The notes under the pieces were generated by a model, which was not told the origin of the DNA, did not search any database, and saw only the letters and a list, made by a program, of their open reading frames with translations. From Psammoneis japonica (lineage: Eukaryota), in assembly GCA_008632985.1 (NCBI GenBank), contig QPGO01000009.1, positions 310,001 to 374,000 on the forward strand: 64,000 nucleotides of DNA. The letters run 5' to 3'. The position numbers and the translations under genes are program-made. Numbering within the stretch: position 1 is the stretch's first letter; each line of letters begins with the position of its first letter. This document shows positions 18,321 to 52,936 of the stretch, piece after piece.

Positions 18321-18378
18321 CCGTGGCACAGTTGGCAGCTGCATTGGGTGGAGTTGAGGTGGTGGCACCTCGGGTTGA

Positions 18379-18831: not shown

Positions 18832-18859
18832 GAGCTGGCAAACCCGTGATTTTCCTCAT

Positions 18860-26452: not shown

Positions 26453-26534
26453 AACGTGTGTGTTTTGCTCTCGACTGTAGTATCCTTGAGTGCTGCGTTT
26501 TGCAAAGGACCTGTCAAGCAAATCTAACAATTGC

Positions 26535-26982: not shown

Positions 26983-26999
26983 TGTACCGTACTAGTAGC

Positions 27000-27375: not shown

Positions 27376-27422
27376 TTATTGCAGCAGTGGCAAGTGGTAA
27401 ACCCTTTATTATTGTTATTAGG

Positions 27423-28469
27423 TCAATGGAGATCTTTGCGAGACTGTAATTGCCTCTTCAAGATGCGAGACCTTTCGTTGGATGCAAGCTGACTGATTCG
27501 CCTGCAAAACATGTCTTGATATTTCGGGTTGGAACCTTTGAACCGTTTCATCTCACTGTGTGTTAGCTTGATGCTACGGATTTCTACTCCGTGGTCTAGC
27601 GTATTTCTGGTTATCAATGGAGGACGTCGCGGGAAGTTTACTTCTCTTGAAGTTGAGGCATTGGATGGAAGCGTTTCTATTTTGAATGTTAAGCGAGATG
27701 TCTCATCACACTCGTTGTCAAGGTCTTCAAAAGCTTGAGCTGTCCCAATTTCCTCAGCCTTCAACCTTTCCCATGCAAAAGAAGTCACATTATCTGTGAA
27801 ACATCCGTGCCATTCCTTTATGAAGGGAAGAGAGTCTATTACCGTTCCGTACCTTGATCGCACCAGAAATCCACGACAACGTGATTGAATCCTCTGCGCC
27901 AGAAGAAAACGTCGAGCAATTGAATTGCCTCTCCTCGCCAAAAATAAGTGGCAAACGGCTTGAATTTTTGGTACCACCTTCTCTTGATGTAAAACCTTCG
28001 CTGCTTGTCTCCCCAGTGCTCCCCTGAAGAAAGCCTGGAGGATGACAGTTCTATTTGAACCTCGCTGAAAGAGCGTGTTTGGCATATAAATTGAGTGTTC
28101 TTCGGGGCTCTTGTACCCACCATCAGTAAGCACATGCATCCAGATTTCGTCACAAATGTCACGGTCTACAAAACGATAGTAAGCGTCAATAGACCAGCTT
28201 TTGATTCGAAGGAGGTGCTCAATAACGAATGTTCTGTCCACGACACCAACTGCATTGCGCAGATCAAGATCGCTCTCGGGTCCAACAGAATTCAAACCAG
28301 CTTGAAGTATACAGGATATGCATCTTGCATGATAAACAGCATCCATGTGTCCGTCATCAAGACGGTGAGTCTTTGTGAATGGCAAGGACCCTCGCGGAAA
28401 ATTGGGCGGAATTACGTCGCAATCGCGATAGACACGCCACCGAAAGATCTCCAAGACCTCAATCAGCAA
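27423..28469 (-). CDS. IQ-motif-containing ORF, probably a fragment of a larger protein
   Basis: 348-aa ORF with KIQAVCHLFLARR and RIQSRCRGFLVRSRY; ends at the duplication breakpoint. Confidence 0.4.
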   Translation of the reverse strand: MLIEVLEIFRWRVYRDCDVIPPNFPRGSLPFTKTHRLDDGHMDAVYHARCISCILQAGLNSVGPESDLDLRNAVGVVDRTFVIEHLLRIKSWSIDAYYRFVDRDICDEIWMHVLTDGGYKSPEEHSIYMPNTLFQRGSNRTVILQAFFRGALGRQAAKVLHQEKVVPKIQAVCHLFLARRGNSIARRFLLAQRIQSRCRGFLVRSRYGTVIDSLPFIKEWHGCFTDNVTSFAWERLKAEEIGTAQAFEDLDNECDETSRLTFKIETLPSNASTSREVNFPRRPPLITRNTLDHGVEIRSIKLTHSEMKRFKGSNPKYQDMFCRRISQLASNERSRILKRQLQSRKDLH

Positions 28470-29308: not shown

Positions 29309-29869
29309 GAATGGAGAAACAACTGAGTGGAAAACCATGCGCGAGACAGTATCTGCTCTTGCTAGCTTGCACAGTGTTCCAAGTCCTTGTTGGACAGCGG
29401 TGGCTCCTTTTATCAATGCGAGTTTATGGTTCGAATTCGTGACGATGTCGCCTTGAAAAGCCAATGTCGCATTTGCAGCCCTTGCTGCGCTTGTTGGGAG
29501 ATGACTCGGTTGTGACGAGCAACTGCCGTACGCATGGTGGGATCAATGATCGCGTGGCCTTGGTGTCTCCCAGCGTCGCACAAGAATACTTGGAACGGCC
29601 CACGGAGACTTTTATTCCAAACCCATTCATGCCAAGGTGCACAATCCGGAATCCTATCTCTGTTATACCTATCACGATCCACCGACCGAGATGCGCCCAA
29701 TCAAGCCGTTTTGAATATTGTACAAACACCGCTCTTGCGTGGCGCAGTCAAGTACGTGACCAACCACAAGGGTGAGGCGACTCTTTCCGACAAGGAAGAC
29801 ATTTCGTATTGTCCCACGAGGATGTCCAAGTTTTTGGATTTGTTTCGCAGTGAACACGAGTGGAAATGA
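29309..29869 (+). pseudogene. 5'-truncated copy of the 3' half of the gene at 25354-26452
   Basis: Near-identical to 25895-26452 with indels; same C-terminus DLFRSEHEWK. Confidence 0.9.
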
Positions 29870-29949
29870 AACGTGTGTGCGTTGCTCTCGACTGTAGCAT
29901 CCTTGAGCACTATGTTTTTGCAAAGGACCTGTCAAGCGAATCTAACAAT

Positions 29950-30615
29950 TACTGTAGTGGAAAAGCTGTTGCTCGAGCATACTGGTAGTAGTCTTGAGTA
30001 AAAAGGTCTCCACTCGCTCTTTCGTTTCAAGATCTTGAGTAGTAGAAACGCTGTTGCTTGAGCATAGTAGCCTTGAGTAGCTTTGTACTTTACTTTGTCT
30101 GGACAAAAGCAAGAACGTGTCCAATCGCTGTTTCGTTTCAAGGCCTACAGTAGTAGAAACGCTGTTGCTCGAGCCCAGTAGCCTTGAGTAGCTTTGTAGG
30201 GCACTACATTACTTTGTCCGGACAAAAGCAAGAACGTCTCCACTCGCTGTTTCGTTTCAAGATTTACAGTAGTTGAAACGCTGTTGCTCGAGCAAAGTAG
30301 CCTTGAGTAGCTTTGTACATTACTTTGCTCGGACAAAAGCAAGAACGTCTCCACTCGCTTTTTCGTTTCAAGATCTACAGTAGTAGAAACGCTGTTGCTC
30401 GAGCATACTGGTAGTAGCCTGAGTAGCTTTTGTACATTACTTTGTCTGGACAAAAGCAAGAACGTCTCCACTCACTGTTTCGTTCAAGATCTACAGTACT
30501 GTAGTATAAACGCTGTTGGTCGAGCATAGTAGTCTTGAGTATTAGCTTTGTACTTTACTTTGTCTGGACAAAAGCAAGAAAGTGTCCACTCGCTGTTTCG
30601 TTTCAAGATCTACAG
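29950..30615. repeat. ~110-bp tandem repeat (about 6 copies)
   Basis: Directly visible units, as at 26535-26845. Confidence 0.9.
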
Positions 30616-31652: not shown

Positions 31653-32289
31653 ATGCCGATTGAACTTCAGCTTGCGTTAAAGGCTCGTCAGGTGGCAGCC
31701 TCCAACCCGGCGGCACAATTATATCGTAGCATTGCAAAGTGAGTTCCTCTATTGTGGATGTTGTCGTTTGATAGATACAAGATCGGGGAGACAATGTTCG
31801 TTCGTCACTCACTGACGTCGGGTGTGTTTTGGAGAAGATTCCAGATTCCGTGATAGTCTAGTCCGAGAGAGTTTCTTCGCTCATTTGTTACTGTAGAGCA
31901 GGTCGAGAGAGCATCTACTCTAGCCCTAATCGATGAACAATCAATACTACTAACTGCCGTCTCGTGTGCTAACCATGCCTCTCGCTTTGCTCCACACCTA
32001 CTCTAGGGAGGTTCCCCGGGTTTTAGCTATCTACGATCTGGACATGCCCGAGCAGGACGCGAGAAATGCGGTTCGTGGTCTTTTTCAAGAGAACGCTTTT
32101 GTCAAGGATGAGCGTGTCAGGGACATGCTGATTGAAAAGGGGTATATGGATTTGGAGGAAGCCTTGTTGCAACACAAGCAGAGAACTCACTTGATTCGAA
32201 CGCTGGGCGGATACGTTGATCAGAGTGGATCCAATCGCAAAAAGCTAGGACGGGATGCGACACCCGAAGAGATCTTTGCGAGACTATAA
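31653..32289 (+). CDS. NDUFA6: Complex I LYR-motif subunit B14/NDUFA6, exons 31653-31738 and 32007-32289
   Basis: AAQLYRSIAK|EVPRVLAIYDLD...VKDERVRDMLIEKGYMDLEEALLQHKQRTHL; in-phase GT-AG intron. Confidence 0.85.
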
Positions 32290-33169
32290 TCATTACAGAA
32301 GCGCCAAGTAGTAAACTCTTTATTATTAGTAGTAGTAGTAGGTCAATGGTTAAACATGCGGTTCTTTGACGTATTCTAGCCAATCGTCAACCATACGGTA
32401 TGCCAACCGCAAGGAAGGATTGGAGATGATTCGCGCGCCAGAAGATTCAAATCTTCCAAAAGCTACCCGCACCACCTCCACAATTGAGAGAAAAATCTAG
32501 ACTAGTCCACAACTTGCACGTGCGGTTTCGCAACGTAAAGGATACAGCCAGAATATGCTACGACATAGATATCCGTCTTGCTTTAAAAGACTGACGACCG
32601 CCTCATACTGTAGAAATGCGCATGAGCGAGCTAGAAGTAGTACTAAGGTATTGTAAATTGTAAAGAATTGCAAGCGGACGTTTTAGGAACTCTGTTTTCT
32701 ATTCCTTTTATGTGAGACGTGTTTTTATTGTCTCTCTAGAGAGGTATGATTTGTATTTTTTCGTAGGAGCCTTGTAAAATTATTGCTCCCAACGAATGCT
32801 CTATTCTCTTCCGTCAATGTTTCAACAACAAGCTTGACTTCCGAAGCGACACGACTTACATGATGCAATGCGAGCCTGAATTAGAGTGTGGTCAATGAAT
32901 TCTCTTTCGTCAATGTTGCCTCTCTGTTTCAACATGACGTCCGAAACGGCCTCGGCTTACAATACTGCGAGCCTGAATTCTTGAGCTGTAAAAGCGAACC
33001 GACATGGTGCAAACGGCAGAGAAAGCGCGTTCTCTATTAGATTGCAATGTTCTTGGACCCAGGCGTCATCAATATTCCGAGTACTAGCCTTCATATGGTC
33101 TGACATGGTCACCGGATGTCGTAACAAACACCTCTTCGGAAGGACTTGTTGGTGGAACAGGTGGGGGCA

Positions 33170-33790: not shown

Positions 33791-36700
33791 CATTGCTGCT
33801 GTGCTTTTCAAAACGTCCTTCTTGGTGAATCCAATCCCAAAGCACAATCAGTAAATCGCCTCGCCTTGAATATCCCAGACCGCCGTACCGCCGTGCCGCA
33901 ACCTAGACACGAGCACCTCAACGTATCCGCTTCTTGCCCACAACCACGGTGAATGATAATTCTGTCTCTGTGTACGTACAAGAAGGCAAGAGCGAGTTGA
34001 GTGGATGAAATACAAAAGAAAAAGGAACAACACGATACACGATCACGACAAGAACACACGTACCTTAATCTGCAACGACAAGGCCGGCAGCAAGCAGAAC
34101 GCCCATGGCCACTGCAACGAGCGCCATGGTCAAAAGAGAAACACAATCAACTCCTCCATTTTACTGCCGTGTTGTTTGAGTTGATTGTCAGAATTATGAG
34201 CGAATCGAGAGCGAACAGATTTCTGCATCGGATTGTTCTTGTACCAGAAGCACGTAAAATCCACGGAGCCTCAGTCCTCGGTCTTCCACGACTCGTGTGC
34301 TCTCGGTGCCTGGCAGGTTTCGACAACTTATCCTCTTGTGGGATCAGATATTTTCAAAAATGTCGGAACCGGTACTGGCATGCCGATCTTCCCAAACCAG
34401 CGGCAAATCGATCGCGAGCGTCATGGTGAAGTTTCTCGTTCTTTGATTTGATATTGTGTTGTTGTGTGGTCGCGCGTTGGGCGTTAGTCATCAGATCTTT
34501 GCGGACGCACATCAGACGTAGATTTCGAACATTTCATTTTTTATGAGCATGAATGTTATTTTGTCTTGACATCTTTCGGATCTTCCATCTCGTGGAATGC
34601 TGCATCGATCTTTACCGAGCTTCTGTTGGGAAAGAGACTACTAGAGTGGTCCCGTGCAAACAGATTTCCATGTAGAAGGAGGTCCGCGGCGCTGTGTGTT
34701 CGGGGATGGGGCCTACGACACGATTTGTCTTTGTTTCTGGCTCCTTCTCAAAGATCGCACTTGGCCTAAAACAGCTCTTGTCCATCTTTTGTGTTGTAAA
34801 AGATCTCTTTTCAACGGGATCCAGCGATGAGAAAAGCTGACAAAGATTGCAGCAGACAAGCAGTGTCAGCAGCTGCCATGGCATTGGATGCTTTTAGGCA
34901 ATGTTCTTGAATCATCATTTGGTGGTTGCAATCGCTCGCAGTTGTTTTCTGCTGGCAATGTCTTGTCAGAGAGCATGCACACAGTCCATCCAGAGATGTC
35001 TCAGGACAGCCTCATGCGTTGACCTCGCAAGTTGAGTGACTTCCTTGTCAAAATTCGTCTTGACCTGAACGAAACCGTTTGGCAATGCTGAAAAGGCGAT
35101 CGCATCAACATCCAACCAAAAAAACACACTGCAACAGTCTCTTCTCACCAAAGCAACAGGCAAACGATGCGACCGCATTTGTCACAAAACGTTGTCCACT
35201 GATTTTTCCTTGTCCAAGGCTGAGAGAACCATTCCCACAATGCAACAGACTTGCCACAGGGCTCCTCCACCTGCGCCATCTAGACTGCAACATCAATGCT
35301 CACATTTTCAAGAAGCACGCAACACAAGCCACACAGCGCATTTTGAGCACTGGGGACAGAGAAGCAGGTCCGCTCGACGATGTCAAATTCTCCGTGATCT
35401 TACGAAGATCCACAAGCAGTGGCATTGTTGATGGCTAGAATGGCATTCTTCTGCCCCGAATCTTGCCTCTTGTAAGAAGGGCGTCAGCAAATCGTAAAAT
35501 TTCCCTTCTTCAAACTGCTCCAGGTGCTCGATTGTCATGCAAAGAGATCGGTGGCGAAAAACAGAATCACACGGGTGCTCGATTGCCCCCCAAATTGATC
35601 GGTCATGTTTCAATCAAACCACAAGTTGGGCGCATGAGCTGATCTGCAGCAGAGGAGGAATCGAAGAAGTGAGGCTCTCCATGTCAGTGGAGCAGCCGTT
35701 GACACTCTTGGAGTTGCTGCTGTTGTTCCCTGATCGCTGTTGGATGATTCGTTGCTGCCGCTGCTGCTGCAGGAATCGAGGCATCAGTTCTAGCTGATCG
35801 TTGAATGTCACTCTGTTGCAGGGAAGTGACAGCAAAGATGATGGTCATTGGATTGAAACCAACAAAAAGGATTCCCAAATGGCAGTGCAACGTTGGTTGC
35901 GAGTGCACTGGAGCAAAACAGGGATTCAATGGCAGGATCCCGTGCAGCGGCGCTTCTTCGAATGACAGTCTTCGTGACAGTCCTGGCATTGGGCGAGCTC
36001 TTGCTTGAGGTTTGCAATGTCATCAAACATTTGTTCTCTTTCACAGAGAAACCCTTCCCTTTCGTTCAGAAGTTGATCCCTTTCACCACGCATTTGTTCC
36101 GCTTCGGGGTTGCGGTGACGAAAGATCCAGTTTGGGCAGAGACGGCGCATGACACAGATCACTGTTTCCCTGTGCTGTGCGGGTTGTCCAAAGCACTGAA
36201 CCTGAAATCATGCTGAAGATCGTTGCGACACAGGCGAATGTTGTGCAGGTCGACAGAACATCTTGGGGGACACGGTCCTTGACTTGGCGGAGGATCTTGA
36301 AGAATTTGCTGCTGGGCTTGACATTTGGAGCGCATTCTTGAAGGGCTTCATGGGCAGCCTTAACACCAAACGTAGAGACACCCACATCACAGTTGAAATT
36401 AACATGTGTTGTTCTGAAATCCTCCGTCAATGGCAAACTGATGAATGTCTTCTGGCGACAATCCGTCAATGGCAAACTGATGCATCTCTTCCGGCGACAA
36501 TCGGAACTTCCATCAACCTCAACAACACTCTCCTCCTCATTGTCCGTGTCCGCCTCTTCATCCGAAACATGCACTTGTGAATCTTGCCCTCCTCCGGCAA
36601 CTCGTCGTCATTGTTGTCATTCTGATCGAAAGCGGGCAGACTCACCACAGATGGATTGTCAGGGGGTGAGCCAACAAAACTCGCACAGAGCTCACGGACG

Positions 36701-37750
36701 CCCTCACCTTTCTCACGCGTGTCCCTGTGCTCCTCCGCTTGACGCTGCAACAGCTTGTCGGTCTCCTCCGCATGTTGCTGGATTGGCTTGTTGGCCACGG
36801 ACATTGTCATCTCTTTGTGAACGCTTTGCAATTGCTTCAACTCAGCAGCATGTTTTTGGCGACGAACACCTTCTAGATCAGCGCGATGCCTCATGAACCC
36901 GGGTCCATCTTTTGCCAGGCAGTGCTCCTTGTATGCCGCCAATCGCTCTGCGCCGGGCTCAGCCGTCTTCTTAGCTGCTTGGCTCTCCTGTTCCCTTTCC
37001 TTCTTTCTCCTGCGCTCTGCGGCTTTTTGACGATTCTTGCTTGTCCTGAATGCCTTCAACCCCATTTCTGAAATCTTTTTGGCTTTGCTCTTCGCCAATT
37101 TGTGGGTGTTGCTCTTGGGAACCATTGTCACTTGTTCTTGTGGGAAAATTGTGGATGACATCCGTGGCACTTGACATCGCAATCGTGGAAGATGGAAGAT
37201 TTTGGGAAAGTTTCCGTTTCATTTTCAAAATGTCCTTCATGAGAGTTTTGAGCCAGACGTGACAACAGGTTCGGGAGTCAACCTGCCGCAGATTTTGATC
37301 CGACCGAACCCACAACACGTTGGATCATCCCCGAAGTTCTCCTTGATGGGTGGCCACAGCAAGCCCAACCCAAGCGCCTGGTGAGCATCCCACAATGACC
37401 ACCACTCGATTTCCCCATTCTTCTCCTCGACCTTCCTCAGCAACAGATGCTCTCGCACCAACAGTTGCGGAAACAACCTCGAGTCCAGACATCGAATCTC
37501 CCAACTTCTTCGGTCCGCAATCCTCACAGCTCACAGCAAAGTCAGCCTCATTTTCTTTTTGTTGGCCCCATGTGTGCTGTGCCGGCAGGACTGCAACACT
37601 GTGTGCACTGGCCAGCTCAACGGCCACATTGTGGGCACATTAAAGAATGCTTTTTATCCAATCATCAAGGATGAAAATTGAAAAATACAAATTCCCAACG
37701 ATTGTGTGCAACCAATGTTTGGTGTGCGACAACTTTCCGTGAGCCACTTG

Positions 37751-37924
37751 TGCAGTGACTCACTTGCACGCTTCTGACACATGGCATTAATTTTGGATGT
37801 CAGATTGACGCAGCCGTTTGAGAGGGCTCGCCAGCACTCGCCAGCGCTTGCTGATGCTTGGGCTCTCCCTCTCTTCAGTCTGCTCACTTCTTTGTTTTGA
37901 CATCAACCTCAGCTTGAGCTTGCA
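37751..37924 (+). repeat. 5' LTR
   Basis: Ungapped alignment to 43023-43196 with 20 mismatches. Confidence 0.95.
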
Positions 37925-37954
37925 CTGCAACTGCAGTCGATTGTAAAGAGCTGA

Positions 37955-40900
37955 ATGAGAAATGACGACACAGTTGACAGGCCCACGAAACAAGAGAAAA
38001 GAACTTTGAGAGCGAAGGCAGTGAATTGGGCTTTGGAACAAAAACGAGAAAAGGAGACACGAAAACAACGCGAACAGGATTTGGCGATTCGGGCAGCACA
38101 ACTCGAATCGAAGGCAGAGTGCTTGAAACAGTTTCCTGGTGGACCAACTTGGCCTGATGAGTGATTGCGAGAGCCTTGAGGAACCGTGCATTTTGCATGC
38201 TGCGAAATTTGCTCACTCGGATTTGGAACTCGTAAAATTGACTCAATCGTATGATGATGGAAGCACGCGTACGAAAAAGTGCCCTTGTTTTGACGGAAGC
38301 AATGGAATTGAAGCGTTGTTGTTTGTGGAAGATCGTTTTCGTAAACTGGCTGCAAAACTCGAATTCACTGCAGGAGAAGAATTGTTTGATGATTTTGAAG
38401 AAGTGTTGACGGATGCAGCTGAAGACAAATGGTCCAATCTCACCATGGCGATTCCGGATGCACAGAAGACGGCAGCTCGTTTCGACCAAGAGTTGGCTCG
38501 TTTTTATTTGTCGCATTGTGAAACTGAAGCTCGTGACACGATGATTGAACACTCACTTGCTCTTAAAAAGCCGCACGACGTTGAAGTGCAGGCACACGCA
38601 GATCAAATGGAAACTTTGGTGCGACACACAAACAAGTTGCCAGGAAATAATCCAGTTGTTGCTCAGAGCCAAAAGAAGAAGATGATTTTCGACAGCTTCC
38701 CTCTGTTGTGGTGTGAGATGCACACAAGAGCAGGACGTGCAATTGGAAATGATGCACTGGCGGAAATGGTCACGCATGTGAGCACGGAGAAATCGTTTGC
38801 GGATGGGAACAAGAAGACATTGAAAAAGCGCAAAGATGGACAGAATGAAGGCGGCTCGAACAAGAAGAAAGGCAATCGCATTGACCCAGAATGCCAATGT
38901 CCGTTGCACACTCACAATCACAAGTGGAAAGATTGCGTCATGAATCCCGACTCCAACAACTGCCGTCCAAGAACTGATCGTGGCGGTCGTGGACATGGTG
39001 GCCGTGGTGGTCGGGGTGGCGGTCGCGGTGGAGGTCGTGGTTGTGGCGGAAATCAAGGTCGTGGTTGGCAAGGCCGTGGCTGTCAAGGTCGTGGTGGTGG
39101 CCAAGGAAATTGTGGCAGTCGAGGAAACTGCAGCTCTGGCAGCAATGGCGGTGAGCATCATGAAGATGGTGGCTCCTGCATGCAACATCAAAATGACACC
39201 CGAACCAATGCAGATGGCGGCGGTTGCGGCAATCCGGCCAGAATGGCTCCTCCTGATGATTGGTCTGCTGAAAGCCATCATCTTGATTCTGTGGGAGGCC
39301 TCGTGAGTGTCAAGGTGGAGCGGGAAGTTTTCGACCTGGTGGTCGCTTCTCGGGATGCGGTCGACACTGACCCAATGAGCTTGAAGAGCTGTCGTCCGAG
39401 TGTGTCGCTCCTGATTCCTGTGTGTTTGATGATTGCACTGATTGCATTGATGATTGTTGCGCACATGCTGCTGATTTGTTTGATGATGACGATTTCGAAA
39501 ATTGCATTGTGAATGACGAAGACGATGTGGGACTTGAGTGCGCTGTGCCAACCCCAAAAACAAAACCAACCAAACCTTCAAACGTGGTCCCTGCAACCTC
39601 ATTCGCGGTGCGATTCATTCAAGATGAGGAAAGCAAGCACGTGATGCGGGTGTTGCTCGACTCTGGTGGAACCCATTCAATGATTCATGCTCGGGTGTTG
39701 CCAGTTGGAGCGGCACCAGCATTGGAGGACACAGGACCAATTGTTCCGAAGTTTCGGACATTGGCGGGAGAGTTCAAATCTGCTCGTTACATTCGACTGC
39801 GGGCTGTGGTGCTCCCTGAATTTGACAAGACCAAACGTGTTGATGGCATGCATGCGCATGTGTTTGACTCACCTTGCCAGTGCGACATGATCCTTGGACA
39901 GGACTTCTTGGCGAGAGCAGGTGTCACATTAGATTTCGAACACGGAATTGTCAAGTGGCTTGATTCAAGCATTGCAATGAAACCAAGAAACCATCGGATT
40001 GGCATCCAGCAGTGGCTTGACGACTTGACTGATGAGCCAGCTGACAATGATGATGCATGGGACAGCCACATCCTCGATGCAAAGCATGAGGAGACGTCCC
40101 CTTCTGAAGTGGCGTCGGCTCAGAAGCATCTCACTGCCGAACAACAAGAAAAATTACGCCTCGCATTGGAAAAACAAACTGCTCTTTTTGATGGCACTCT
40201 CGGCAAGTGTGCTGGCAAAAAAGTTCACCTTGACATTGATCCCAACGCTGTTCCTTGCCATTCTCGAGTGCATGCAGTGCCGCACAATGATCTCGAGACT
40301 TTCAAATGAGAACTGGATCATTCAGTGGCTCTTGGCGTTCTTGAAGAAGCCGGAACAACGGAATGGGCTGCTGGCACTTTTATTCGGCCGAAGAAGGATG
40401 GTCGAGTGCGGTGGCTCAGCGATTTTTGGGAACTCAACAAAGCCCTCAAGCGCAAGGTTTGTCCTTTACCGATCATTCAAGATGTGCTGCAGAAGAGAGC
40501 CGGGTGCAAGTTTTTGACCAAATTGGACCTCTCAATGATGTGCTGTGTGTTCGAATTGGATGATGATTCCAAGGACTTGATGACAATTGTGACACCCTTT
40601 GGAAAGCACCGATGCTGCCGTTTGGCAATGGGTCTGAAGCCGGCTCCAGATGTTGCACAATGTTTGATTGAGAAAACTGTGCACGACTTGGACGTTGACG
40701 CGCACGTTGATGATCTCGCTCAATTTGATGACGACTTTGACATTCACCTTGACCGTCTTGACAAACTCTTGCAATGCTTGGAAGAAGCTGGGTTCAAAGT
40801 AAATCCCTTGAGGTGCAAATGGTGTGTGCAGGAAACGGATTTCCTTGGGCATTGGCCAACTCCGACTGGAATTCGTCCATGGAAGAAAAAGGTGGAGGCC

Positions 40901-42900
40901 ATCCTGCGAATGCAACCTCCGGAAAACATCAAGCAGCTTCGTTCGTTCCTTGGCACTGCAACGCATTGTCACAATGTGTGGCCTTGGCGTTCTCACCTGT
41001 TGAAACCCTTGACAGATCTTACAGGCAAAGGCTCATGGACATGGACAACGGAATGTCAGGCGGTGTTCGATGAGATGAAAGCAGTCCCAGCGGCCGAAAC
41101 ATCAATGGCACATCCGAATCACAACAAACCCTTCCACATCTACACCGATGCAAGTGATCACCAGATGGGCGCAGTGATTGCACAGGATGGAAAGCCTGTT
41201 GCACGCTGGTCTCGAAAGCTCAATGCGGCGCAACAAAACCATTCGACAATCGAAAAAAGAACTGTTGGCCATTGTCATGTGCTTCTGAGAACACCGATCA
41301 ATGCTCCTTGGTGGTGACTTGCATGCACTCACTGACCACAAGAACCTTGCCTTTCGCACCTTGAATTCACAGCGCGCACTTCATTGGCGACTCTTTCTGG
41401 AAGACTTTTCTCCTCAGTTTCATCACATTGAAGGCCGATTGAATGTCTTGGCTGATTGCTTTTCTTGTTTACCTCGTGTGGATCCTCCCTCTGAAGGGAA
41501 GAGCTTGGCTCCGGGTGAAGGAGCTGTTGTTGATTTTGCTCCGCTCGATTCGAAGTTGGTGCCGAGTGAGGAACCATCCGAAGTCGAGGATTTCCATGAT
41601 GAGGACTTGGAGCTCGGCACACGCTGATTCAAGTGTTGTTGCAACATTGAAAATGAAGGCCACTCACACTTCTTCTCTTCCGGAACTGTTCGATTCTTTC
41701 TTGAACCACCCTGCGAAGCAAGAGATGCAGAATCCGATGACATTACAATGCATTCAGGAGTGCCAGTTCGAGGACCAACAGTTGAACCAGATGCGCGTTG
41801 CTCACCCTGATCGTTTCCTTGTGGAATGTGTGAACAATTGACTGCTTGTGTGTCATCGCATGCGACCGAATGATCCTCCAGGACAGTGGAAAATCTGTTT
41901 GCCGACTGCGCTCATGCCTGACATCTTGCAGTGGTGTCATCTCGTCCTTGGCCATGCCGGAAGCCAGCGCATGTGTGAAACGATCCAGGCTCATTGTCAT
42001 CATCCAGGGTTGCATCACATGTGTGATGAGTGCTCTTGTGCTGATTGCCAACGCAACAAAACTTTGGGTCCTGGCTGTGGAGAGTCACCCGAGCGAGAAG
42101 CTCCATTAACTCCCTGGTCGGAAGTGGCGGTTGACCTCATTGGCCCGTGGAAAATCAAAGTGCCGAATGGAGAGATTGAGTTTCGGGCATTGACCTGCAT
42201 TGATCCTGTCTCCAATCTTGTTGAACTTGTGAGAATTGAAAACAAAACTGCCCGACATGTTGCCAACCAATTTGAAAACTGCCAGCTTGCATGCCATCCC
42301 AGACCGAATCAATGCATCCACGATGACGGCGGCGAGTTCACTGGGCACGATTTTCAGATGCTGTTGCAACAAGCCGGAATTGATGATGTGACGACTGCTT
42401 CGCACAACCCTCAAGCCAACGCCATTTGCGAACGAATGCACCAGACCATCGGCAATGCATTGCGCACGATCATTGCTTCTGACCCACATCAAAATCTTCA
42501 AGATGCAGCCAGCCTTGTGGACGATGCTTTGGCAACTGCAATGTGCGCAACTCGCTGTGCTGTTTCCCGTTCTTTACAGACTTCACCAGGTGCTGTGGTG
42601 TTCGGACGTGACATGATCCTGGGTGTCCCTGCACTGGCAGACTTGTTGACGATCCAAGGCCATCGCCAGACGCTGGTCAACGACAATTTGCGAAGAGCCA
42701 ATGCCAAGAGAAGATCCTGCGATTGTCAAGTGGGTGATCAAGTTCCAACCAAGTCGGTCGACCTGTCCAGACTCGAGCCTCGTGCTCATGGCCCTCATCC
42801 CATTGTTCAAGTGCACGTGAATGGCACGCTTTTGCTTTGTCAAGCTCCTCATGTGGTTGAGCGCCTCAACATTCGGCGCCTGATTCCTTTTCGTGGTTGA
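37955..42900 (+). pseudogene. gag-pol: gag, protease (VLLDSGG), RT (AHVDD), RNase H (TDAS, TDHKNL), integrase (VAVDLIGP, NPQANAICERMH)
   Basis: ORFs 38139, 39422, 40325, 41301, 41443 and 41848 linked through TGA stops and frameshifts. Confidence 0.92.
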
Positions 42901-43022
42901 TCAGGGGGTTTTCTTCCCAACACCTGGGTTTCCTCCTGCTGTTGTGATTTCTTTGGGTTTTGGTCCCTGGTTTTGGCCCTTTGCATGATCCTCCAGTTCT
43001 CTCGGATCATGGAAGGGAAGAG

Positions 43023-43196
43023 TGCAGCAACTCACTCGCACGCTTCTGATGTGCAGTGTCAATTTTGGACATCAGATTAACGCAGCCGTTTGAGAGGGCT
43101 CGCCAGCACTCGCCAGCGCTCGCTGACGCTTAGGCTCTCCCTCTCTTCGGTCTACTCACTTCTTTGTTTTGACATCAACCTCAGCTTGAGCTTGCA
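43023..43196 (+). repeat. 3' LTR
   Basis: Follows the PPT; followed by the TSD. Confidence 0.95.
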
Positions 43197-43302
43197 ACTT
43201 GCTCACGGTCATTTGTCGCACACCAAATATTTCTTTTTATAAAATTATGGAGGATAAAAATACCATAGTTACAATTTCTTAAAAGATATATACAAATCAA
43301 TG

Positions 43303-43357
43303 TTTGGTGTGCGACAACTTTCCGCCACTTGCTCACGGTCATTTGTCGCACACCAAA
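43303..43357. repeat. Inverted-repeat (hairpin) unit; uninterrupted paralog of the Gypsy target site
   Basis: TTTGGTGTGCGACAA...TTGTCGCACACCAAA arms; same unit split at 37718-37750 / 43197-43227. Confidence 0.85.
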
Positions 43358-46117
43358 GAATGCTTTTTATTACATTATGTAGGATAAATATAGCAGAGTT
43401 ACAGTGATCTTACGAAGATCCTCGAACGGTATTTATTCTTCTACTCTCTACTCTAGCTAGAGCTCTCTACTAGCTATAGAGCTAGAGTAGAGATAGAGGG
43501 CCCCTACACATACTGCAGACAGAGACCATGCGATCCGTTAGACCGGGCTCATGCCGTCATCATGGCGGCTTTCCCTTCTTTAAACCGCTCTAGGTACTGT
43601 ACTCTATTGTCGTCCAAAGAGATCGGTGGCGAAAAATAGAATCACACGGGTACTCGATTGCCCCCCGAATATATCGGTCGCGAATAGAATAATCATACGT
43701 TCATAGAAGAAAAGGAGGCGCGAGCTCAAGCCGCCTCCCGGAGCGCCATGCGCATCGACAATATTTCCGCTGAGAAGCCTCTTCTGTTTTCAAGTGCCTC
43801 TTAATAATCTATATGGCCAAGAAAAAAAAAAGTTGAAGGTCCAACGCGTCGACACGGTGGTCTAACTAGATTCTCGTTGTTTTTCCATTTCTGTGCAATA
43901 CGTCTCACTCCACACTTTCATTCTTCGTGGTTTAGGTCGTCATCACCATTGAAAACTTGTCCATGCTGACCCGACGATCCTTGTTGCTGCTGCACGCTTT
44001 GATGCCTTGTTGCCTCCATCTTGTCAACAAGCATGCTGTTGAAATAATGATACCGGGTACGGCAAAGATGCGGAAGATTGTTTCAAGATAATGTCGTTCG
44101 ACAATCATCATTTGCTCGCCATATCGAAGTTCCTGTGCGGCGGCATTTACGACAGCGGCGCATTTGATCAGGTCAAAGCTGTCAACACGTAATTCTTGAG
44201 ATTATCGTATGCATGCGAAACCTCCCCATAAGGGTGTTCATCGTGTCAAAATATGCGCAAGAAAGGAAGCTACCCGAACTGGCAATGACGTCCTCTTCGA
44301 TCCGGTAATCATGATTTCTGGTTCCTCAGGACGCTCAATATCATCCTGGGTAAAGTCAGAATCACTCTCACTCTCATTCTCAGAATGTGTAACGTCAGGT
44401 TCCTCTTCCAAAGAGAGAGCTAGCTGTCAAGCGATTAGAGAACTTCGTCTCTCGGACGTCTGTTCCTCATTTGCTTGTTGCCGCGGCATCCCTACTAACG
44501 ACAAGAGGCTGGAGCCACTCATCATCCACTTTTTGGAGACACTCTGTCGGGTGCGAATGGCTGAGCGGAGTGTACTGAGAAGGGTAGGAGGGATCTGCGT
44601 TCTGTCGCTCAAAGAATCAACTGCCCTCATCAGATCATAAACGTTCGCTCTCAAAGTGACTAGCGAAACTGCTTTGTTGCCTTCTTGCACTCAGAATAGA
44701 GCGAACTGCAAGACTTTGGTCGTAAAGCTACTGGTGGTCTGTCCTCGCCTATCTAGAAGTATGTGACAATGTGCCATATACCGGTTACACCGACGGTGCA
44801 CAGCTGTAGTCAGTAGTGCGCTTTTCGTCCAACTTGGAACTCTTGAGAGCTCCATATCTAAGAAAATGCAAAACAAAAAGTAAATTCGAATCACACAAAA
44901 GGAAAGACAATGAAATATAACGGAACTATCCTGTTCAAGGCAAACTCACAACAGTTTCCTGACGATCTAGTCGCTGGACATCTTATTGCAAAATTGTGGC
45001 TAGAGCTACCGTACATCGAGTCGGATGGTGAGCTTGTCACCAACACGGCTCTTGTAACCACACCTTATTGCACTAGAGTGGTGTGTGTGCTGTCATGGTA
45101 GTCGGAATCCCGGGTGTAGTAGTGCAGATAGCAGATATTCTCCTTGTTACCAGCATTAGTAGTAGGAGCTACTTCTCGCTTCTTGGAGGCTGGCGGTTTC
45201 AACGAGGCTTCTTGTAGCGGCATGGAGGAAGAGTCTTGTAGGGCCACCGCCATGATAGCTCCTCCATTTTCAAGAATTCCCGTAAAGAGCGCTTTGCCAA
45301 GCTGGTGACTGTCAACCGGCGACGACGTCATGCGAGCGACTGCGATGATGCCATCTATTTCGTGCAATTGCTTCAACCCGTTGAGCCTGAGAGTGGCCTC
45401 TAGTGCCACCAGGAGAAGGATGAGGCTGCACATCTTGAGACGTTTGGGGAGTGCTACGGTGCTTTGGTCCTTTTGGTAGGCGGCATGATGCATGATGAAA
45501 GTAACAAGCGCTGGCGGGGAACGAGAACGTCATGGCGGTGGAGCGAGGAGTCGAGATCTTTGATCTTTCTGCGTCGAGTCTGTCCATCCTTCCTATGTTC
45601 AGGGCTATGAATAGTCGGAGTATACGTGAGTACGACTTGAGAACTTGCTTTGACCGGCACTGCGTACTCTCCTACGTGGCTTTTCTACACGTGGCTTTTG
45701 GTGGCGGTCGGCGACGTGTAATCTTACGTGAGATTCAGTACTCAAACTTCTGCATCCAACGGGCGTTCGGCGCAGCTGTTTCACTTTTTCGCCGCACATT
45801 TTTGCTCCCGCAAGCCGGCATCACTATCAACTCGAGTTGATTCATTCTGTTCACTCCGTCCTGCATTCATCGCTGACGAGTTGTTTACAACACAACTCGA
45901 GTCGCCAACAAGTACAAGAAGGAAAGATTAGAAGAAGTGGTAGTTTCTTTGATCCTCCACTCTCATTTTTTTCTTTCTTTCTCAATCATCATAGCACCAT
46001 CACGTTTGAAGATATTCGGCTCGTCGTTCGTCGAGGCGCGCCTGCAAGCCTGCAACACTCGTACGGTAGTAGGAACTTCTTTGCTCAAGTTTTCGGGTTA
46101 CTCTCAAATTGAACAGC

Positions 46118-49100
46118 ATGTCCGATTCGTGTGTATACGTCCAAGACAAGATCCATGGTTGGTTGCCAGCCAATGTGCTGAGTCAGAATGAAAAGGAAGC
46201 CACCGTCAAGGTGATGAATGCGGATGGAAAAGAACTTTTGGAAGAACGAACGGTTCAATTGAAGGACTATCCAGATGGGGCGCTACCTCTCCAAAATGTC
46301 GATGCCAATGGACGTTTGATGGAAATGGGAGACATGGTGGATCTTCCCAGTTTGCACGAGGCTGCCATTCTGTACAACCTTCGTGCGCGCCATCAAAACA
46401 GCAAGCCCTACACTCGAGTTGGCGATTTGATTATTGCAGTGAATCCTTTCAAGTGGATGAAAGATTTATATTCAGAGACGGTTCGGGCTCAATACACAGA
46501 ACGACTTATTTGGGACAGTAAGTTATTCAATACCAGGCATTGAGTTTTTCTGTGCTATCTGACGAGTGCGCGACTCACGAGTTGGTTTCTCATTGCGAAT
46601 CATTTTGCGTATAGCCGATGCTGCCGGCAAAGGAGGAGATGTCAAGGCCGGTTTGGTTCCCCATATATACGAAACATCGTCCTTGGCCTATCGTGGGTTG
46701 GCCGTGGATGGTCAGCATCAGTCGATTTTGGTGTCTGGTGAAAGTGGCGCAGGAAAAACAGAAAGCGTAAAGATTGTCATGAGCCACTTGGCGTCGGTGC
46801 AAGAAGCGGTTGGTTCTCATTCGGGTGACGCTATTGCTGAAGCTGCGGATACTCCTCAGCACCACTTGGTCGTACAGCGTGTCTTGGATTCCCATCCTTT
46901 GTTGGAAGCATTTGGGAATGCGAAGACGGTCCGAAACGACAACTCGAGTCGGTTTGGAAAGTTTATTCAAATGCAGTTTGATGTTGAGGATGCAACCACT
47001 GCCGCGTTTCGTGGCAAGGCGATCCCATCGTGCCTGTTGGCAGGGTCGACTTGCGAAACTTATTTGCTAGAAAAGAGTCGTGTTGTGGGGCACGAGCAAT
47101 CTGAACGTACATATCACATTTTTTATCAATTGCTTGCTGCACCTGATGAAGTCAAGGCAGAATTTTGGGACGGACTCGTCGGCAAGACTAATGCTTCTTT
47201 TCGTTACGTTGGCGAAACAGACACAACCATAATTGAGGGCTGTACTGATGGAGAACGATTTGACCGTACGATCAAGGCGTTGGCGCTTTTAAATGTTACG
47301 GGAGACAAACTGAACACACTTTTCAGAGCGGTGTGTTCAGTCTTACAGTTGGGAAACATTGTGTTTGACGAGGACCCTAACGACGGAGACCACTCAGTCA
47401 TTACCTCAAAGGACGAATTGGATGCCTTGTCTGATTTGATGGGAGTCGCCGCAGAAGATCTCAGCAAAGCTCTGACATTTAGGACGGTGACGGCGGGAAA
47501 AGGAGAGAGCTACACCGTCCCGCTGAAAGTAGGAGACGCTCGCGATGTCTGTGACGCCTTTTCGAAAGAAATTTATCAGCAAGTATTTCATTGGCTGGTG
47601 CGTGAGATCAATTCTGCTACTTGTGCGGAGGCAAATTATGACAACGCCAAGGATGTGGAGGAATATGGCCTCATTGGATTGCTGGACATCTTCGGATTCG
47701 AATCTTTTGAAGTAAACAGGTTTGAGCAGGTGAGAGACTCGTCGCTTCGAGTATCTATCTTTTTTTCCTCCTCTCCATTAGTCCGAGCTAATCGTTTTTC
47801 GTCTTATTATTCGTGAAGCTGTGTATCAACTACACTAATGAAAAGTTGCAACAAAAATACACTAAGGACATTTTCAGATCCGTCCAGGAGGAGTACGCAA
47901 TGGAAGGAATCGCGTTGGGTGAGATCACGTTTACGGACAATGTTGACGTTCTGAATTTGATTGAAGGTCGCATGGGAGTTATTTCCATCCTAAACGAAGA
48001 ATGTGTACGTCCAAAAGGTAATAATGAAGCGTTCGTCTCAAAGCTTAAGACTGTTAATAAAGAGGCCCCGAGCTTGATCCTGGAGAAGCTTCACACGGCT
48101 ACAGAGTTTGGCATCAATCATTATGCTGGAGTTGTGAATTATCAAGCCGAGTCGTTCATTCAAAAGAATGCGGATGCCCTCCCGAAGGATTTGGTAGATT
48201 GTGCGTGTAAGAGTACGAACGAGCTGATTCAGGTCGAAGTAAAGGCCGCTGCAGATGCTAGGATCGGAGAGGCAACGAAAGGCGGTAGAAGGGTGACAAG
48301 GCCCTCGTCACACACGGTTGCGGCAAAGTTTAAGTCGCAATTGAGCCACCTGATGCACAACATTGGAAAGACGCACACGAGATATATTCGTTGCATCAAG
48401 CCTAACCCTGAGAAAGTCCCGATGGAGATGGATATGTTTTCATCAGCCGAGCAGCTACGTTGTGCCGGTGTCGTGGCTGCCGTAACGATTTCTCGGGTTG
48501 CATTTCCTAACCGACTTTTACACGAGACAGTAGTGGAGCGCTTCTCCTGCCTTTCGCCGTCAGTTGAATCTGAGAGCGAAGATGAAAAGAAGGAAGATGC
48601 TACAGACGAGGCGAGCGGGTATCGCTCTTCTGTTGAAATTCTACTGGATGAAGTGATGAATAATCTTGAGGTAAAGGGGGAAAATGGAGAAACCACAAAA
48701 GCATTTGAGTGCGGCAATACTCGCGTCTATTTCAGAACAGGTGCCCTTGAATACCTTGAAGCTCAACGTTTGAAAGCTCTAAGCGTCTATGCAGTTACCA
48801 TCGAAAGGATGGTTCGCGGTTTCACCGCAAGATCACTATTCTCGCGACTGAAATGTGCTTGCATTGTTTCTCAAGCCAACGCGAGGCGTACCATTGCCAG
48901 GCAGTCATTCTTGAGGGCGAAGAGTGCATGCATCTCTCTCACTTGCTGGGTTCGTGTAGCCTTTGCCAAAATAGAGCTCACTAGACTTCGCCAGGAGCAT
49001 GCAGCTGTCAAAATCCAGTCAAGAGCCAGGACGATGCAATGCACGGCAGAGTTTGTAAGGTGCAGGATGGCTGCCACGAACATACAAAGGATCGCAAGAG

Positions 49101-50322
49101 GTGCCATCCAGCGGCCGAAATACAAGGCAGCTCTCAGGGAAGCCGAGGAAGAGGCACGAGTGAATAGCAAGTTGGCGGCTCTGCAGAAGCGGCTCCGAGA
49201 TGCTGAAATGAAGTTGATAAAGGCAGATAAACAGCGAATCGAAGCAGAGAAGAGGGCAGAAGGTCTGGAGGGAAAAGGAGCGCCCGCTTCCGAAGAGAAG
49301 ACCTCGAAAACGGCGTATGTGAACGACGGCGAAGAAGAAGAGAACGCAAGAACTCCATCCAGTGATCAACAGAAGTCGCTCCTCGACGATAGCAATGAGT
49401 AAGTGATCGAGTCTTTTTTGTCTGGTAGAACTGAAGCTACCCCATCTTACATCTCGCTCTTTTTCTCTTGAAACATAGAATGCTTGTCTATTTTAAGGAG
49501 GAGGTGTTTAAACTCAAGAGCGCGAACTACCTGCTTCGTACCGATTTGGCAGCCGCAAAAGAGGAAAACCAGCATCTAAGCGAACGTACAATGTCCGCCG
49601 AAGCATCGTACAATGTATTGAAACAAAATGTAAGTTCGATGAGCCAAAACAACATGAAAGTTGCTGTGCAGGCCGCAAGGCAGAAAGAGACGATTGCAAG
49701 TCTGAAGCAGGAGATGAAAAAAATGAAGTTTAGGAATACAACAGAGATAAAAAGGTTGAAAGAAGAGCACGGGCGAAGAGAAAAGCATCACGAAAATGAG
49801 GGAAAAAGACTTCGAAAGGAGTTGGAACGGCTAAGGAACATCATAGCAAAGAATCCAGAACCTTCGGCCTATCAGCAATCCAGAGCCCATTTCCAAAGTC
49901 ACATTCACACACAGAATGATAAGTCGGTTTCCTCAGGATATGCGTCTTCCTCACTGCCCACCTCGGAAACATCTGGTTCGGAAGACTTGGACAACTACCG
50001 CGCCAGCAGCCTGCAGAAAGCCTCTTGGACTGTGGTCGAGAAACGGAGACGGAAGAATAGAAAATCAAGCTCTTCTTTGCAATCGGCTGCTTCTCACGGT
50101 CATTCGAAAATGAGTTCAGCGAATCGTAGAGGATCTTCGAAGCATGCGGTTTCCAAACCCCGTCCAGGTACACCGCCCAGGACTCCAAAGTCTTCTCTTG
50201 CAGCAGCAGCGGCACGAACTAACAACCGAGCGAAGAAGAAACCACTGTCTCCTCCATTGCTGAAGCACAGTAGCTCTAGTCTCGCCTTGGCCGCAGCAAG
50301 CAAGAGTCAAAGCCAACGATGA
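46118..50322 (+). CDS. Myosin heavy chain (motor, IQ repeats, coiled coil, basic tail); exons 46118-46517, 46615-47729, 47819-49398, 49479-50322
   Basis: GESGAGKT P-loop, LEAFGNAKTVRNDNSSRFGK, LDIFGFE, YIRCIKPN; three in-phase GT-AG introns. Confidence 0.95.
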
Positions 50323-51211: not shown

Positions 51212-52564
51212 TCACCACTTCAGCAAAAGGTTTGATCCTGGTCGTGCGGGTGTTCCCTTTGTCAATGCTAGCTCTTTGGGACCAAACCTCTGCACAAAGG
51301 CCCCGCATCCTCTTTCGGAATGATTCATCAGCTCGATTCGAAATGGGTGTTTGTCCCCCTTTGAGTTGCGGCCAATGAACAACATGTCTGGCGTTGTGTC
51401 AAAAGGAGGTAGCCACCCTTCGACTTGTACTGTGGAATTCACATATAGACTCGTATCGAGTAATCCAGCACAGTAATTCTTTTTGAACTTTCCTCGCTCA
51501 TTGTTTTGAATCACATAAATATCCAAACGTCCGTCGCCATTCACATCTAGCACCTCCAAATCCGGAGCAGCATGCGGCAACGTCTTCTCATAGTAGGGAT
51601 TGTTCATGTCGAAATATGGCTTTTTTGATCCAAGTCCTCGGAATATAACCAATTTGTGATGGCGAGCAAATCCTTCAATGGCAAGCAGATCCGGCTTACC
51701 ATCACCCGTCACGTCGGCGACTCGAGCACTTCGCCACCGTTTGGAACGGGGTAGCTTGTATTTTGTAAATTTGCCGCTCTTTTTCTGTAAGAGAATTTCG
51801 GATCGCCGACTCGTTCTAGAACAGAAGAGCAAATCATCTACACCGTCATTGTTGAAATCGGCCACAAGTACTCGAGAAAGCTTGACTTCTCTGTTGATGT
51901 GCTTGTTTTGAACTTCCCTGAAAATGCGACCACTCTTCTTCTTCTTCGGTATGACTTTGTATATTCTGTGCCAATTGGGACGACCATCCTCTCTCGGTGC
52001 ACCACTGGTTGTAATTAGCACAAGTTTTGACCCGTCGGCGCCTCGTAAGGGTATCGCCTCTCGAGAACGCATGGAAGGCGTGTCGTACAAACCATGGTTG
52101 ATTACTTTTTTGAGAGACCCGTTTGGTTGTGTAATGTAAACTTCATTGTATCCCTCCCCGGTCCCCTTGACGGCTCCAATAGTACAAATCAAGTCAACAA
52201 GGCCGTCATTGTTGACGTCCATTGCTCCACAACCGTGTCGATCAATACCCTTCTTACCCCCAACTTTATCGCTGTCGGCAAGTCTTGCGGCCGTGCGCGG
52301 AACCCACTTACCCTTTTGCTTTTCACAATAGGGCATTTCCGGTTTTTGGTGTCCAACCCACCAAAATGTTCGTTTCCCTTTGCACCACGGTGATCCTTCC
52401 GGCATGAGCATTGTAGGCCCAAACACACGGGAAAGTTCCTCAACCACCGTCACCTTTGGTTGAAACGTCTTCTTTTTCTTCTTCTTCTTCTTTCGACCAG
52501 CTTTACATGGAGGAGCAGCAAAAAGAATTGCGATAACTAACAGCTCGTTCCAACGAAACTTCAT
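51212..52564 (-). CDS. Secreted FG-GAP/VCBS-repeat beta-propeller protein
   Basis: Signal peptide; four DxNxDGxxD-type motifs (DVNNDGLVD, DFNNDGVDD, DVTGDGKPD, DVNGDGRLD). Confidence 0.85.
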   Translation of the reverse strand: MKFRWNELLVIAILFAAPPCKAGRKKKKKKKKTFQPKVTVVEELSRVFGPTMLMPEGSPWCKGKRTFWWVGHQKPEMPYCEKQKGKWVPRTAARLADSDKVGGKKGIDRHGCGAMDVNNDGLVDLICTIGAVKGTGEGYNEVYITQPNGSLKKVINHGLYDTPSMRSREAIPLRGADGSKLVLITTSGAPREDGRPNWHRIYKVIPKKKKSGRIFREVQNKHINREVKLSRVLVADFNNDGVDDLLFCSRTSRRSEILLQKKSGKFTKYKLPRSKRWRSARVADVTGDGKPDLLAIEGFARHHKLVIFRGLGSKKPYFDMNNPYYEKTLPHAAPDLEVLDVNGDGRLDIYVIQNNERGKFKKNYCAGLLDTSLYVNSTVQVEGWLPPFDTTPDMLFIGRNSKGDKHPFRIELMNHSERGCGAFVQRFGPKELALTKGTPARPGSNLLLKW

Positions 52565-52936
52565 TCTTACTCCGAAACGGCAAGTAGAGCCAACACAACT
52601 TATGGTTCAGCACACACGATATGCAAACAGGATTCAAAACAAGAATTGCGAGAGGAGAAAAAATGTGGGCGATGTTTGTCCTGCGAACATTTATAGAAAT
52701 AAATATATTTTCAAGAATATATATATAATTTATCTCTTCTAATTACTAAACTGTCATACATAGAGCCTACGTAAGTCTACGAGAAAGAAAAGGGCCTCCA
52801 ACAGCTCTGTCTGTACGTCGTCCGCAATGTGTTGAACGCCACACGCCACTCTAGCCCTAGGGCCTAGATTTTTATTTTTTTGCTTTTCCTCTTTCGTCTT
52901 TCTGTCGAGTCAGAACAGAATCAAACAATCGACACC

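Follow-up and report, generated by a model that had tools for sequence, protein, structure and literature searches.

Hypermutation restricted to TpA dinucleotides has been reported for integrated viral DNA of the chlorarachniophyte Bigelowiella natans (Rhizaria) (Mettrop et al., bioRxiv 10.64898/2026.01.13.699255, 2026). According to the accessible portion of that preprint, 230 of the 231 single-nucleotide mutations found by mutation-accumulation lines in two hypermutable regions are A→G or T→C; the regions are an integrated giant virus and a virophage, the AT-to-GC mutations all fall at TpA, and the rate of about 6 × 10⁻⁷ per site per generation is some 1000 times the background (10.64898/2026.01.13.699255). 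The same portion describes an excess of reverse transcriptase and DDE domains among TpA-depleted coding sequences, and proposes a regulated defence with an ADAT2-like adenine deaminase as the candidate (10.64898/2026.01.13.699255). We describe here a Ty3/gypsy long terminal repeat (LTR) retrotransposon at positions 37751–43196 of a 64-kb stretch of Psammoneis japonica DNA (assembly GCA_008632985.1, contig QPGO01000009.1, positions 310,001 to 374,000; this whole stretch is the window referred to below). The element very likely inserted into a diatom genome and was inactivated, after integration, by a process that turns 5′-TA-3′ into TG or CA.

Fungal repeat-induced point mutation (RIP) changes C to T mainly at CpA and so creates TpA. 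The footprints of APOBEC3 and ADAR in vertebrate retroelements reportedly record deaminase-type hypermutation in genomic copies; ADARs are, to our knowledge, metazoan. A RID-like DNMT4 is present in some diatoms, its function being given as not known in the available part of the source (PMC9998398). Diatom gypsy elements have been described in a text whose available part makes no mention of an effect of this kind (PMC2806351), and the available part of a paper on the repeats of an araphid diatom genome contains no term for hypermutation, RIP, deamination, methylation, Kimura distances or a dinucleotide effect (PMC12718438). A full-text literature search returned no report of another TpA-destroying process, and none in diatoms.

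The element has LTR ends TG…CA, a short target duplication, a polypurine tract and the domain order protease, reverse transcriptase (RT), RNase H, integrase, as is characteristic of Ty3/gypsy; the homologues of its RT are diatom gypsy elements (51–60% identity). Its parts are as follows.

37746–37750 and 43197–43201, + strand: left and right copies of the 5-bp target-site duplication ACTTG, flanking both ends of the element.
37751–37924, + strand: 5′ LTR, 174 bp, ends TG…CA, with one TA remaining (37788, context TTAA).
37756–7, 37778–9, 37780–1, 37782–3, 37785–6 and 37798–9, + strand: six steps of the 5′ LTR that are discordant (TG/CA) between the LTRs, most likely former TA.
38139–39512, + strand: gag-like reading frame without a Pfam match; an RGG-type repeat occupies 38971–39101.
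39371–40309, + strand: protease region (Asp_protease_2, E = 1.1 × 10⁻⁴, just under the Pfam cut-off).
40310–41317, + strand: RT and RNase H, the catalytic YxDD of RT now being HVDD.
41842–42900, + strand: integrase (H2C2 zinc domain and rve core), reached only past frameshifts at about 41300–41840.
43011–43022, + strand: polypurine tract GGAAGGGAAGAG, adjoining the 3′ LTR.
43023–43196, + strand: 3′ LTR, 174 bp, with three TA remaining (43078 in TTAA, 43131 in TTAG, 43153 in CTAC).
43028–9, 43050–5, 43057–8 and 43070–1, + strand: partners in the 3′ LTR of the six discordant steps.

We take GGAAGGGAAGAG to be the polypurine tract from the general anatomy of LTR elements. The body of the element carries at least two frameshifts plus in-frame stops, and no further copy of the LTR or of the element was found within the window.

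The 5446 bp of the element contain 24 TA and 269 CG. As ratios of observed to expected (obs/exp), TA stands at 0.07, CG at 0.79, TG at 1.62 and CA at 1.37; AA (1.27), AT (0.97) and TT (1.22) are not depleted. The median TA obs/exp of 78 related metagenomic elements is 0.72 (range 0.45–1.00), which rules out that the element is natively TA-poor. GC-biased gene conversion and selection against UA in RNA were rejected as well, on the undepleted AA, AT and TT and on the loss of the catalytic Tyr. Two of the metagenomic gypsy relatives (L076 and L053) have CG obs/exp of 0.11 and 0.27 but TA of 0.76 and 0.81, as expected of methylation decay of the classical sort in which the TpA process has no part.

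The direction of change can be read from the tyrosine codons, of which the three forward frames of the element hold 4–5 in about 1800. In a comparison of RT with 35 homologues, all ten conserved Tyr columns (at least 80% Tyr) are replaced, six by Cys and four by His, and 116 of the 144 other conserved columns are kept. Across pol (protease, RT, RNase H and integrase), with the 78 metagenomic relatives as the reference, none of the 21 conserved Tyr is retained (10 Cys, 10 His, 1 Arg), with 300 of 344 other conserved columns kept, among them all 12 for Asn and 15 of the 18 for Lys. The codons concerned (TAY) now read TGY or CAY in 20 of the 21 columns and CGC in one. Conserved Arg is changed in five of 26 columns, always to Trp, His or Cys (CGN to TGN or CAN). 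Since the relatives keep Tyr in 1419 of the 1524 cells at the Tyr columns, and TA at the median given above, their clade is not natively TA-poor. The Cys and His outcomes follow one another along the element at random (11 runs against 11.0 expected). When outcomes were sorted by the base preceding the Tyr codon, as a possible setter of the strand choice, a pyrimidine there went with Cys 8 times and with His 8 times, a purine 8 and 6 times. Because conserved TAY now reads TGY or CAY with ten Cys to ten His, TA is ancestral and was lost on both strands, having turned into TG (A→G in the sense strand) and into CA (A→G in the antisense strand) equally often.

A change of T→C on one strand is a change of A→G on the other, and sequence does not separate a thymine route from an adenine one. 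Dinoflagellate DNA contains 5-hydroxymethyluracil, with TpA and TpC as the favoured sites, and A:T→G:C transitions are promoted by oxidised thymines. The same TpA-directed process might then rest on oxidation or modification of T to a base resembling 5-hydroxymethyl- or 5-formyl-uracil, which mispairs with G. We regard this as unlikely: nothing in this organism points to such a base, and the sole published proposal for the signature, in the accessible portion of its source, is an ADAT2-like adenine deaminase (10.64898/2026.01.13.699255).

That the TpA-directed process acted after integration is seen in the LTR pair. The two LTRs of one insertion are copied from a single template and are identical when made; because of this, the differences between them post-date integration. 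The ACTTG duplication shows a single insertion event and, being intact, rules out recombination between elements as the source of the LTR differences. The LTRs align without gaps over their 174 bp with 20 mismatches, of which all 20 are transitions (chance 3 × 10⁻⁴ at an assumed transition to transversion ratio of 2:1). All 20 lie inside pyrimidine–purine (YR) steps common to both copies; such steps make up 84 of the 174 positions, and the chance of this placement is 4.7 × 10⁻⁷. The discordant YR steps are CA/TG (6), TA/TG (3), TA/CA (1), CG/TG (3) and CG/CA (1); the concordant ones are CG/CG (6), TA/TA (0), TG/TG (9) and CA/CA (13). An earlier note on this stretch had described the gapless pair with its 20 transitions in YR dinucleotides, and had counted six steps of TG versus CA, four of TA versus TG/CA and four of CG versus TG/CA; our alignment and step table agree with it exactly, and the strings it quoted (CTGA-CACATG-G-CA-T-TA-A in the 5′ LTR, CTGA-TGTGCA-G-TG-T-CA-A in the 3′ LTR) are both present. 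As a control, 22 terminal-repeat pairs of related metagenomic elements were taken, some of which may be contig-end overlaps and not LTRs; ten with no or one mismatch were dropped, and the 12 with at least two hold 150 mismatches (91 transitions and 59 transversions), of which 50 fall in YR steps; TG/CA discordance is absent from them.

The raw divergence of the LTRs is 11.5% (13.1% by the Kimura two-parameter model), yet there is no change across the 90 non-YR positions. Dating by LTR divergence would overestimate the age of the insertion, as the earlier note had foreseen. The same note called the element 'young but hypermutated'; the hypermutation is borne out, and 'young' holds only in a relative sense, given the frameshifts (at least two), the in-frame stops and the decay of about a quarter of the CpGs.

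At the six steps where one LTR reads TG and the other CA, one change per copy is needed from CG or from TA alike, so that parsimony is undecided. Decay of methylated CpG might accordingly be taken as the only process, the six steps having been CG deaminated on different strands and the TA versus TG/CA steps being secondary. CpG decay does occur: CG has gone to TG/CA on both strands (CG obs/exp 0.79, and 0.00–0.59 in an older block of the window), four LTR steps set CG against TG/CA, the five changed Arg are of this kind, and position 37849 is C in all five aligned contigs and T in this copy. It is unable to remove TA or to yield Tyr→Cys/His, whereas TA obs/exp has fallen to 0.07 and no Tyr of 21 is kept. 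The LTR step counts were further fitted with a two-process model in which each copy loses sites independently. The fit gives a CG retention of 0.75 with about 10.7 ancestral CpGs (from the six CG/CG and four CG/x steps) and a TA retention of 0.15 with about 16 ancestral TA (from the four TA/x steps, the lack of TA/TA and the remaining discordances). Under this model CpG decay predicts 0.33 discordant TG/CA steps against the six observed (P = 1.4 × 10⁻⁶). CpG decay is a second, minor process that does not account for the finding, and as the sole explanation it is very improbable.

Two processes, of which the TpA-directed one dominates, also fit the body of the element, where retention estimated independently of the LTRs is 0.77 for CG (0.79/1.03) and 0.10 for TA (0.07/0.72). 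The agreement with the LTR values suggests, under the model, that essentially all TA loss came after integration. Some 16 ancestral TA per LTR is plausible because two true LTRs of relatives hold TA at similar density (13 in 214 bp and 24 in 207 bp). The modelled odds that the ancestor was TA are 17–28:1 per discordant site, and all six sites were probably TA on these estimates (P = 0.71–0.81); independent loss of the same TA from each LTR, which the earlier note had proposed, would be the favoured history. If the six sites were TA, five of them lay in the context most prone to change, A-TA-N. The promoter destruction that the earlier note inferred from a TATA-like run finds no support among relatives: the motif TATAWA occurs in none of 13 of their terminal repeats, several of which are probably contig-end overlaps rather than LTRs.

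The depletion is not confined to the element. When TA was counted in 500-bp steps across the window, four sharply bounded TA-free blocks were found (about 9.8–19.6, 35.1–43.2, 58.5–61.4 and 62.0–63.4 kb), amounting to 22.2 of the 64 kb. The features concerned are as follows.

35100–43196: TA-free block holding the element, 0–5 TA per 500 bp against 11–37 outside; its right edge is the end of the 3′ LTR.
About 43320–43340: uninterrupted copy of the target, CCGCCACTTGCTCACGG, in the next 130-bp unit about 130 bp downstream.
9800–19600: older block of satellite and pseudogene pieces, TA obs/exp 0.00–0.10, CG obs/exp 0.00–0.59.
11650–12233, minus strand: piece of a Pescadillo pseudogene, frameshifted, conserved Tyr now His/Cys.
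14937–18322: 181/358-bp satellite, within the block at 9.8–19.6 kb.
18750–19106, minus strand: piece of a bacterial-type RecA pseudogene, frameshifted, conserved Tyr now His/Cys.
58500–61400: TA-poor and CG-poor block.
62102–64000, minus strand: second, unrelated Ty3/gypsy fragment (RNase H and integrase) with a 633-codon open frame running off the end of the window.

At the end of the 3′ LTR (43196) the count rises from 1 to 37 TA per 500 bp, and on the 5′ side the depletion extends 2.6 kb past the element (35.1–37.75 kb); TA loss thus passes the edge of the 5′ LTR yet halts at that of the 3′ LTR. A 105-bp sequence inside the block (35500–35604) has a paralogue outside it (43570–43679), and the two differ by five TA→TG/CA, three CG→TG/CA and four transversions. 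The insertion target is a tandem unit of 130 bp that contains a palindrome (TTTGGTGTGCGACAA … TTGTCGCACACCAAA), present at 37620–37750 and 43194–43453; where the left-flank unit reads TTGTGTGC, the right-flank unit has ATATATAC. The right-hand units are TA-rich, and the left-hand one has its TA steps changed. For an open reading frame at 36469–37218 (minus strand), neither Pfam nor a set of 1.84 billion representative proteins gave a match, and one at 58300–59508 had no homologue in the protein search.

The second gypsy fragment has a TA obs/exp of about 0.2 and has lost all 11 conserved Tyr (now six Cys, four His, one Phe). DNA other than transposons is hit too, because the Pescadillo and RecA pieces show Tyr→His/Cys; the satellite units, in which transitions about equal transversions, are too old to inform. 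Over the blocks the TA/AT ratio is 0.05–0.09 and (CA+TG)/(AC+GT) is 1.6–2.0, and in every block TA loss saturates ahead of CG loss; within the element the loss per site is about 7–9 times faster for TA than for CG.

The 98 TA that survive in the blocks differ in context from the 1670 TA elsewhere in the window. TTAA makes up 24.5% of the survivors against 3.6% elsewhere, ATAT 0 against 6.2%, GTAC 1% against 9.3%, and TA preceded by A 2% against 26%. The process prefers R-TA-Y and spares Y-TA-R, TTAA above all. Nine of the 98 survivors are CGTA, with a cluster at 38233–38342; a neighbouring CpG may protect TA in CGTA, or CGTA may be secondary.

TA and CG loss share the same blocks, and the WA motif of Pol eta includes TA. 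TA loss could on these grounds be a by-product of error-prone repair (Pol-eta-like WA→WG) triggered by dense deamination of 5-methylcytosine. We give this little credence, as AA is undepleted in the element, its conserved Asn and Lys are kept in the proportions given above, and TA loss runs so far ahead of CG loss that it is not secondary to it.

Public sequencing runs bear on the state of the locus. One DNA run (X1) contains 46% of sampled words of the window; no RNA run was listed as matching it. Contigs of this and two other runs (X2 and X3) were aligned to 34500–44500 at 80% likeness, and X1 gave 2381 contig pieces, whose 876 variable places include 721 transitions and 142 transversions. 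This suggests that the X1 sample holds many diverged relatives of the element, summed depth not being a copy number. TA is likewise rare in the X1 contigs over the stretch of low summed depth. Between 35836 and 37558 the X1 contigs differ from the window at 1.7–3% of letters (ten letters in a 595-bp contig over 36965–37558, seven in a 237-bp contig over 36507–36742); among the places listed, most are CG versus TG/CA, in both directions. These differences are likely allelic or strain variation from ongoing CpG decay.

Systematic errors at methylated repeats are known for some sequencing platforms, and the blocks are likely methylated repeats; TA might have been misread as TG/CA in base calling or polishing where the bases of silenced DNA are modified. 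The stronger argument against this is that a systematic error would repeat its call whenever the context recurs, and at one and the same step one LTR reads TG and the other CA. TA is also near zero over about 22 kb with normal TA in the flanks, and the X1 contigs, which weigh lightly as they may come from the same sample, agree on the TA-poor state. An artefact of this sort is highly improbable.

Editing before integration, by an ADAR-like A-to-I activity on the RNA of the element or by RT error copied into DNA, is scarcely credible even though ADARs favour a 5′ U/T neighbour (cited in the Discussion of 10.64898/2026.01.13.699255, as far as its text is accessible), since LTRs from one template would be alike and they differ at 20 sites, editing of sense RNA would give Tyr→Cys only and the outcome is 10 Cys to 10 His, and DNA that is no retroelement (the Pescadillo and RecA pieces, the satellite and the left flank) is affected. 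The same evidence upholds the statement of the earlier note that the changes arose on both strands of chromosomal double-stranded DNA. It also separates the locus from APOBEC3 and ADAR footprints: those enzymes act on cDNA or RNA before integration, in a strand-specific manner (sense A→G only for ADAR) and with LTRs left alike, and here the change is post-integration and strand-symmetric.

Low-copy duplicates in the window are not depleted of TA. Those at 25895–26844 and 29309–30266, and at 26999–27429 and 31920–32349, are 88–90% identical and lie in TA-normal DNA. TA stands against TG/CA at 14 of the 60 mismatches in the first pair and at 12 of the 32 in the second, and these may be a low-level form of the TpA process. 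The host genes of the window are compact and ordinary, with normal TA:

1776–3191: DUF1350 gene.
46563–50322: myosin gene (head domain and IQ motifs) in three long open stretches.
51212–52606: FG-GAP repeat protein.
53152–54078: KRR1.

The nearest relatives of KRR1 are from araphid pennate diatoms (73–78% identical) and the other named matches are diatoms too, which by homology points to a diatom host.

Given the direction, dinucleotide specificity, strand symmetry, post-integration timing, context and block structure of the changes, all of which the sequence shows, the history of the locus is best read as follows. A single Ty3/gypsy insertion started with identical LTRs. At the A of TpA, on either strand and with equal frequency, A:T→G:C transitions then occurred, accompanied by CpG decay to TG/CA at a rate some 7–9 times lower. 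Both TG and CA are dead ends, for the TpA process (the partner A is then preceded by C) and for CpG decay; because of this, where both LTRs once had TA, one could end as TG and the other as CA. The process acts on chromosomal double-stranded DNA and strikes sites independently, with no strand-coordinated runs, and it is confined to bounded foreign or silenced DNA (this element, the second gypsy, the satellite, dead copies of host genes), sparing neighbouring genes. As its agent we infer a defence by which the host edits DNA; most probably adenine would be deaminated (to inosine, which is read as G), with chromatin or small RNA as the guide.

In its A:T→G:C transitions, their restriction to TpA, their occurrence on both strands and their bounded regions, the locus has what was described for B. 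natans; from the accessible portion of that source, the likeness extends to TpG and CpA as the products according to strand and to foreign DNA being hit with the rest left normal. The signature is the same in a different supergroup lineage, and the phenomenon is extended to diatoms and to transposons. The two cases differ in that B. natans offers de novo mutations, in a single-copy giant-virus insert whose depletion is so far mild (rho TpA 0.45), whereas here the record is fossil and close to saturation, with a ratio of 0.07. Further, unlike in the accessible B. natans account, LTR retrotransposons, a satellite and host-gene pseudogenes are affected, CpG decay is combined with TpA loss, the LTR pair serves as an internal clock and there is a tetranucleotide context. 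That account, in its accessible portion, makes no mention of a diatom or stramenopile (10.64898/2026.01.13.699255).

The likeness to fungal RIP lies in dinucleotide-specific transitions on both strands that inactivate repeated or foreign DNA, with sharp boundaries, destroyed coding capacity and inflated divergence ages. The direction is opposite: no C→T at CpA raising TpA is seen, and TpA is destroyed with CpA and TpG created, hence the low TA/AT ratio of the blocks. Nor is dependence on duplication shown here, as the 1-kb duplicates are unsaturated and a stretch of low depth is hit.

Several points weigh against the interpretation given above. The signature is found in none of the 78 related metagenomic elements, a set biased towards intact copies, and a degenerate pattern of the LTR has no match in the metagenome, genome and viral contig collections. 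The TA ancestry of the six discordant sites rests on the model; a hypermutable local CGCGCG cluster could be imagined in their place, though setting CG retention as low as 0.5 leaves P at 6 × 10⁻⁴. The stretch at 35.8–37.5 kb is TA-free despite having no homologue and a low summed contig depth, and the 1-kb duplicates at 90% identity in normal DNA keep 40–42 TA; because of the latter, duplication alone is insufficient to make a target, and neither 'repeat' nor 'transposon' fully defines what is hit. X1 may be the source sample of the window, so that its agreement is not independent. Finally, the record is a fossil one, in which no enzyme, modified base or de novo event is observed.

A broader reading is that diatoms, and perhaps SAR algae (stramenopiles, alveolates and Rhizaria) generally, run a TpA-directed DNA-editing defence on any silenced, foreign or duplicated DNA as the mirror image of RIP. 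This would add a new general class to the genome defences of eukaryotes; we put the chances of this reading at about even. On that reading, A:T→G:C transitions at R-TA-Y would strike both strands of retrotransposons, satellites and dead genes with targeting sharp to the base pair, through an enzyme modifying adenine (or thymine) in double-stranded DNA. Tyr codons and TAA/TAG stops would be erased, and together with CpG decay the end state would hold TG and CA only.

If the process does operate in a diatom, its age or its spread would exceed that of a single lineage, and its targets would include retrotransposons and dead gene copies, not viral inserts alone. The context rules, with R-TA-Y preferred and TTAA spared, constrain any candidate enzyme, and the field of base editing would have a direct interest in an enzyme able to deaminate the adenine of one particular dinucleotide in double-stranded DNA. 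In genomes of this kind LTR dating, Kimura repeat landscapes and homology-based annotation of transposons would be systematically misled.

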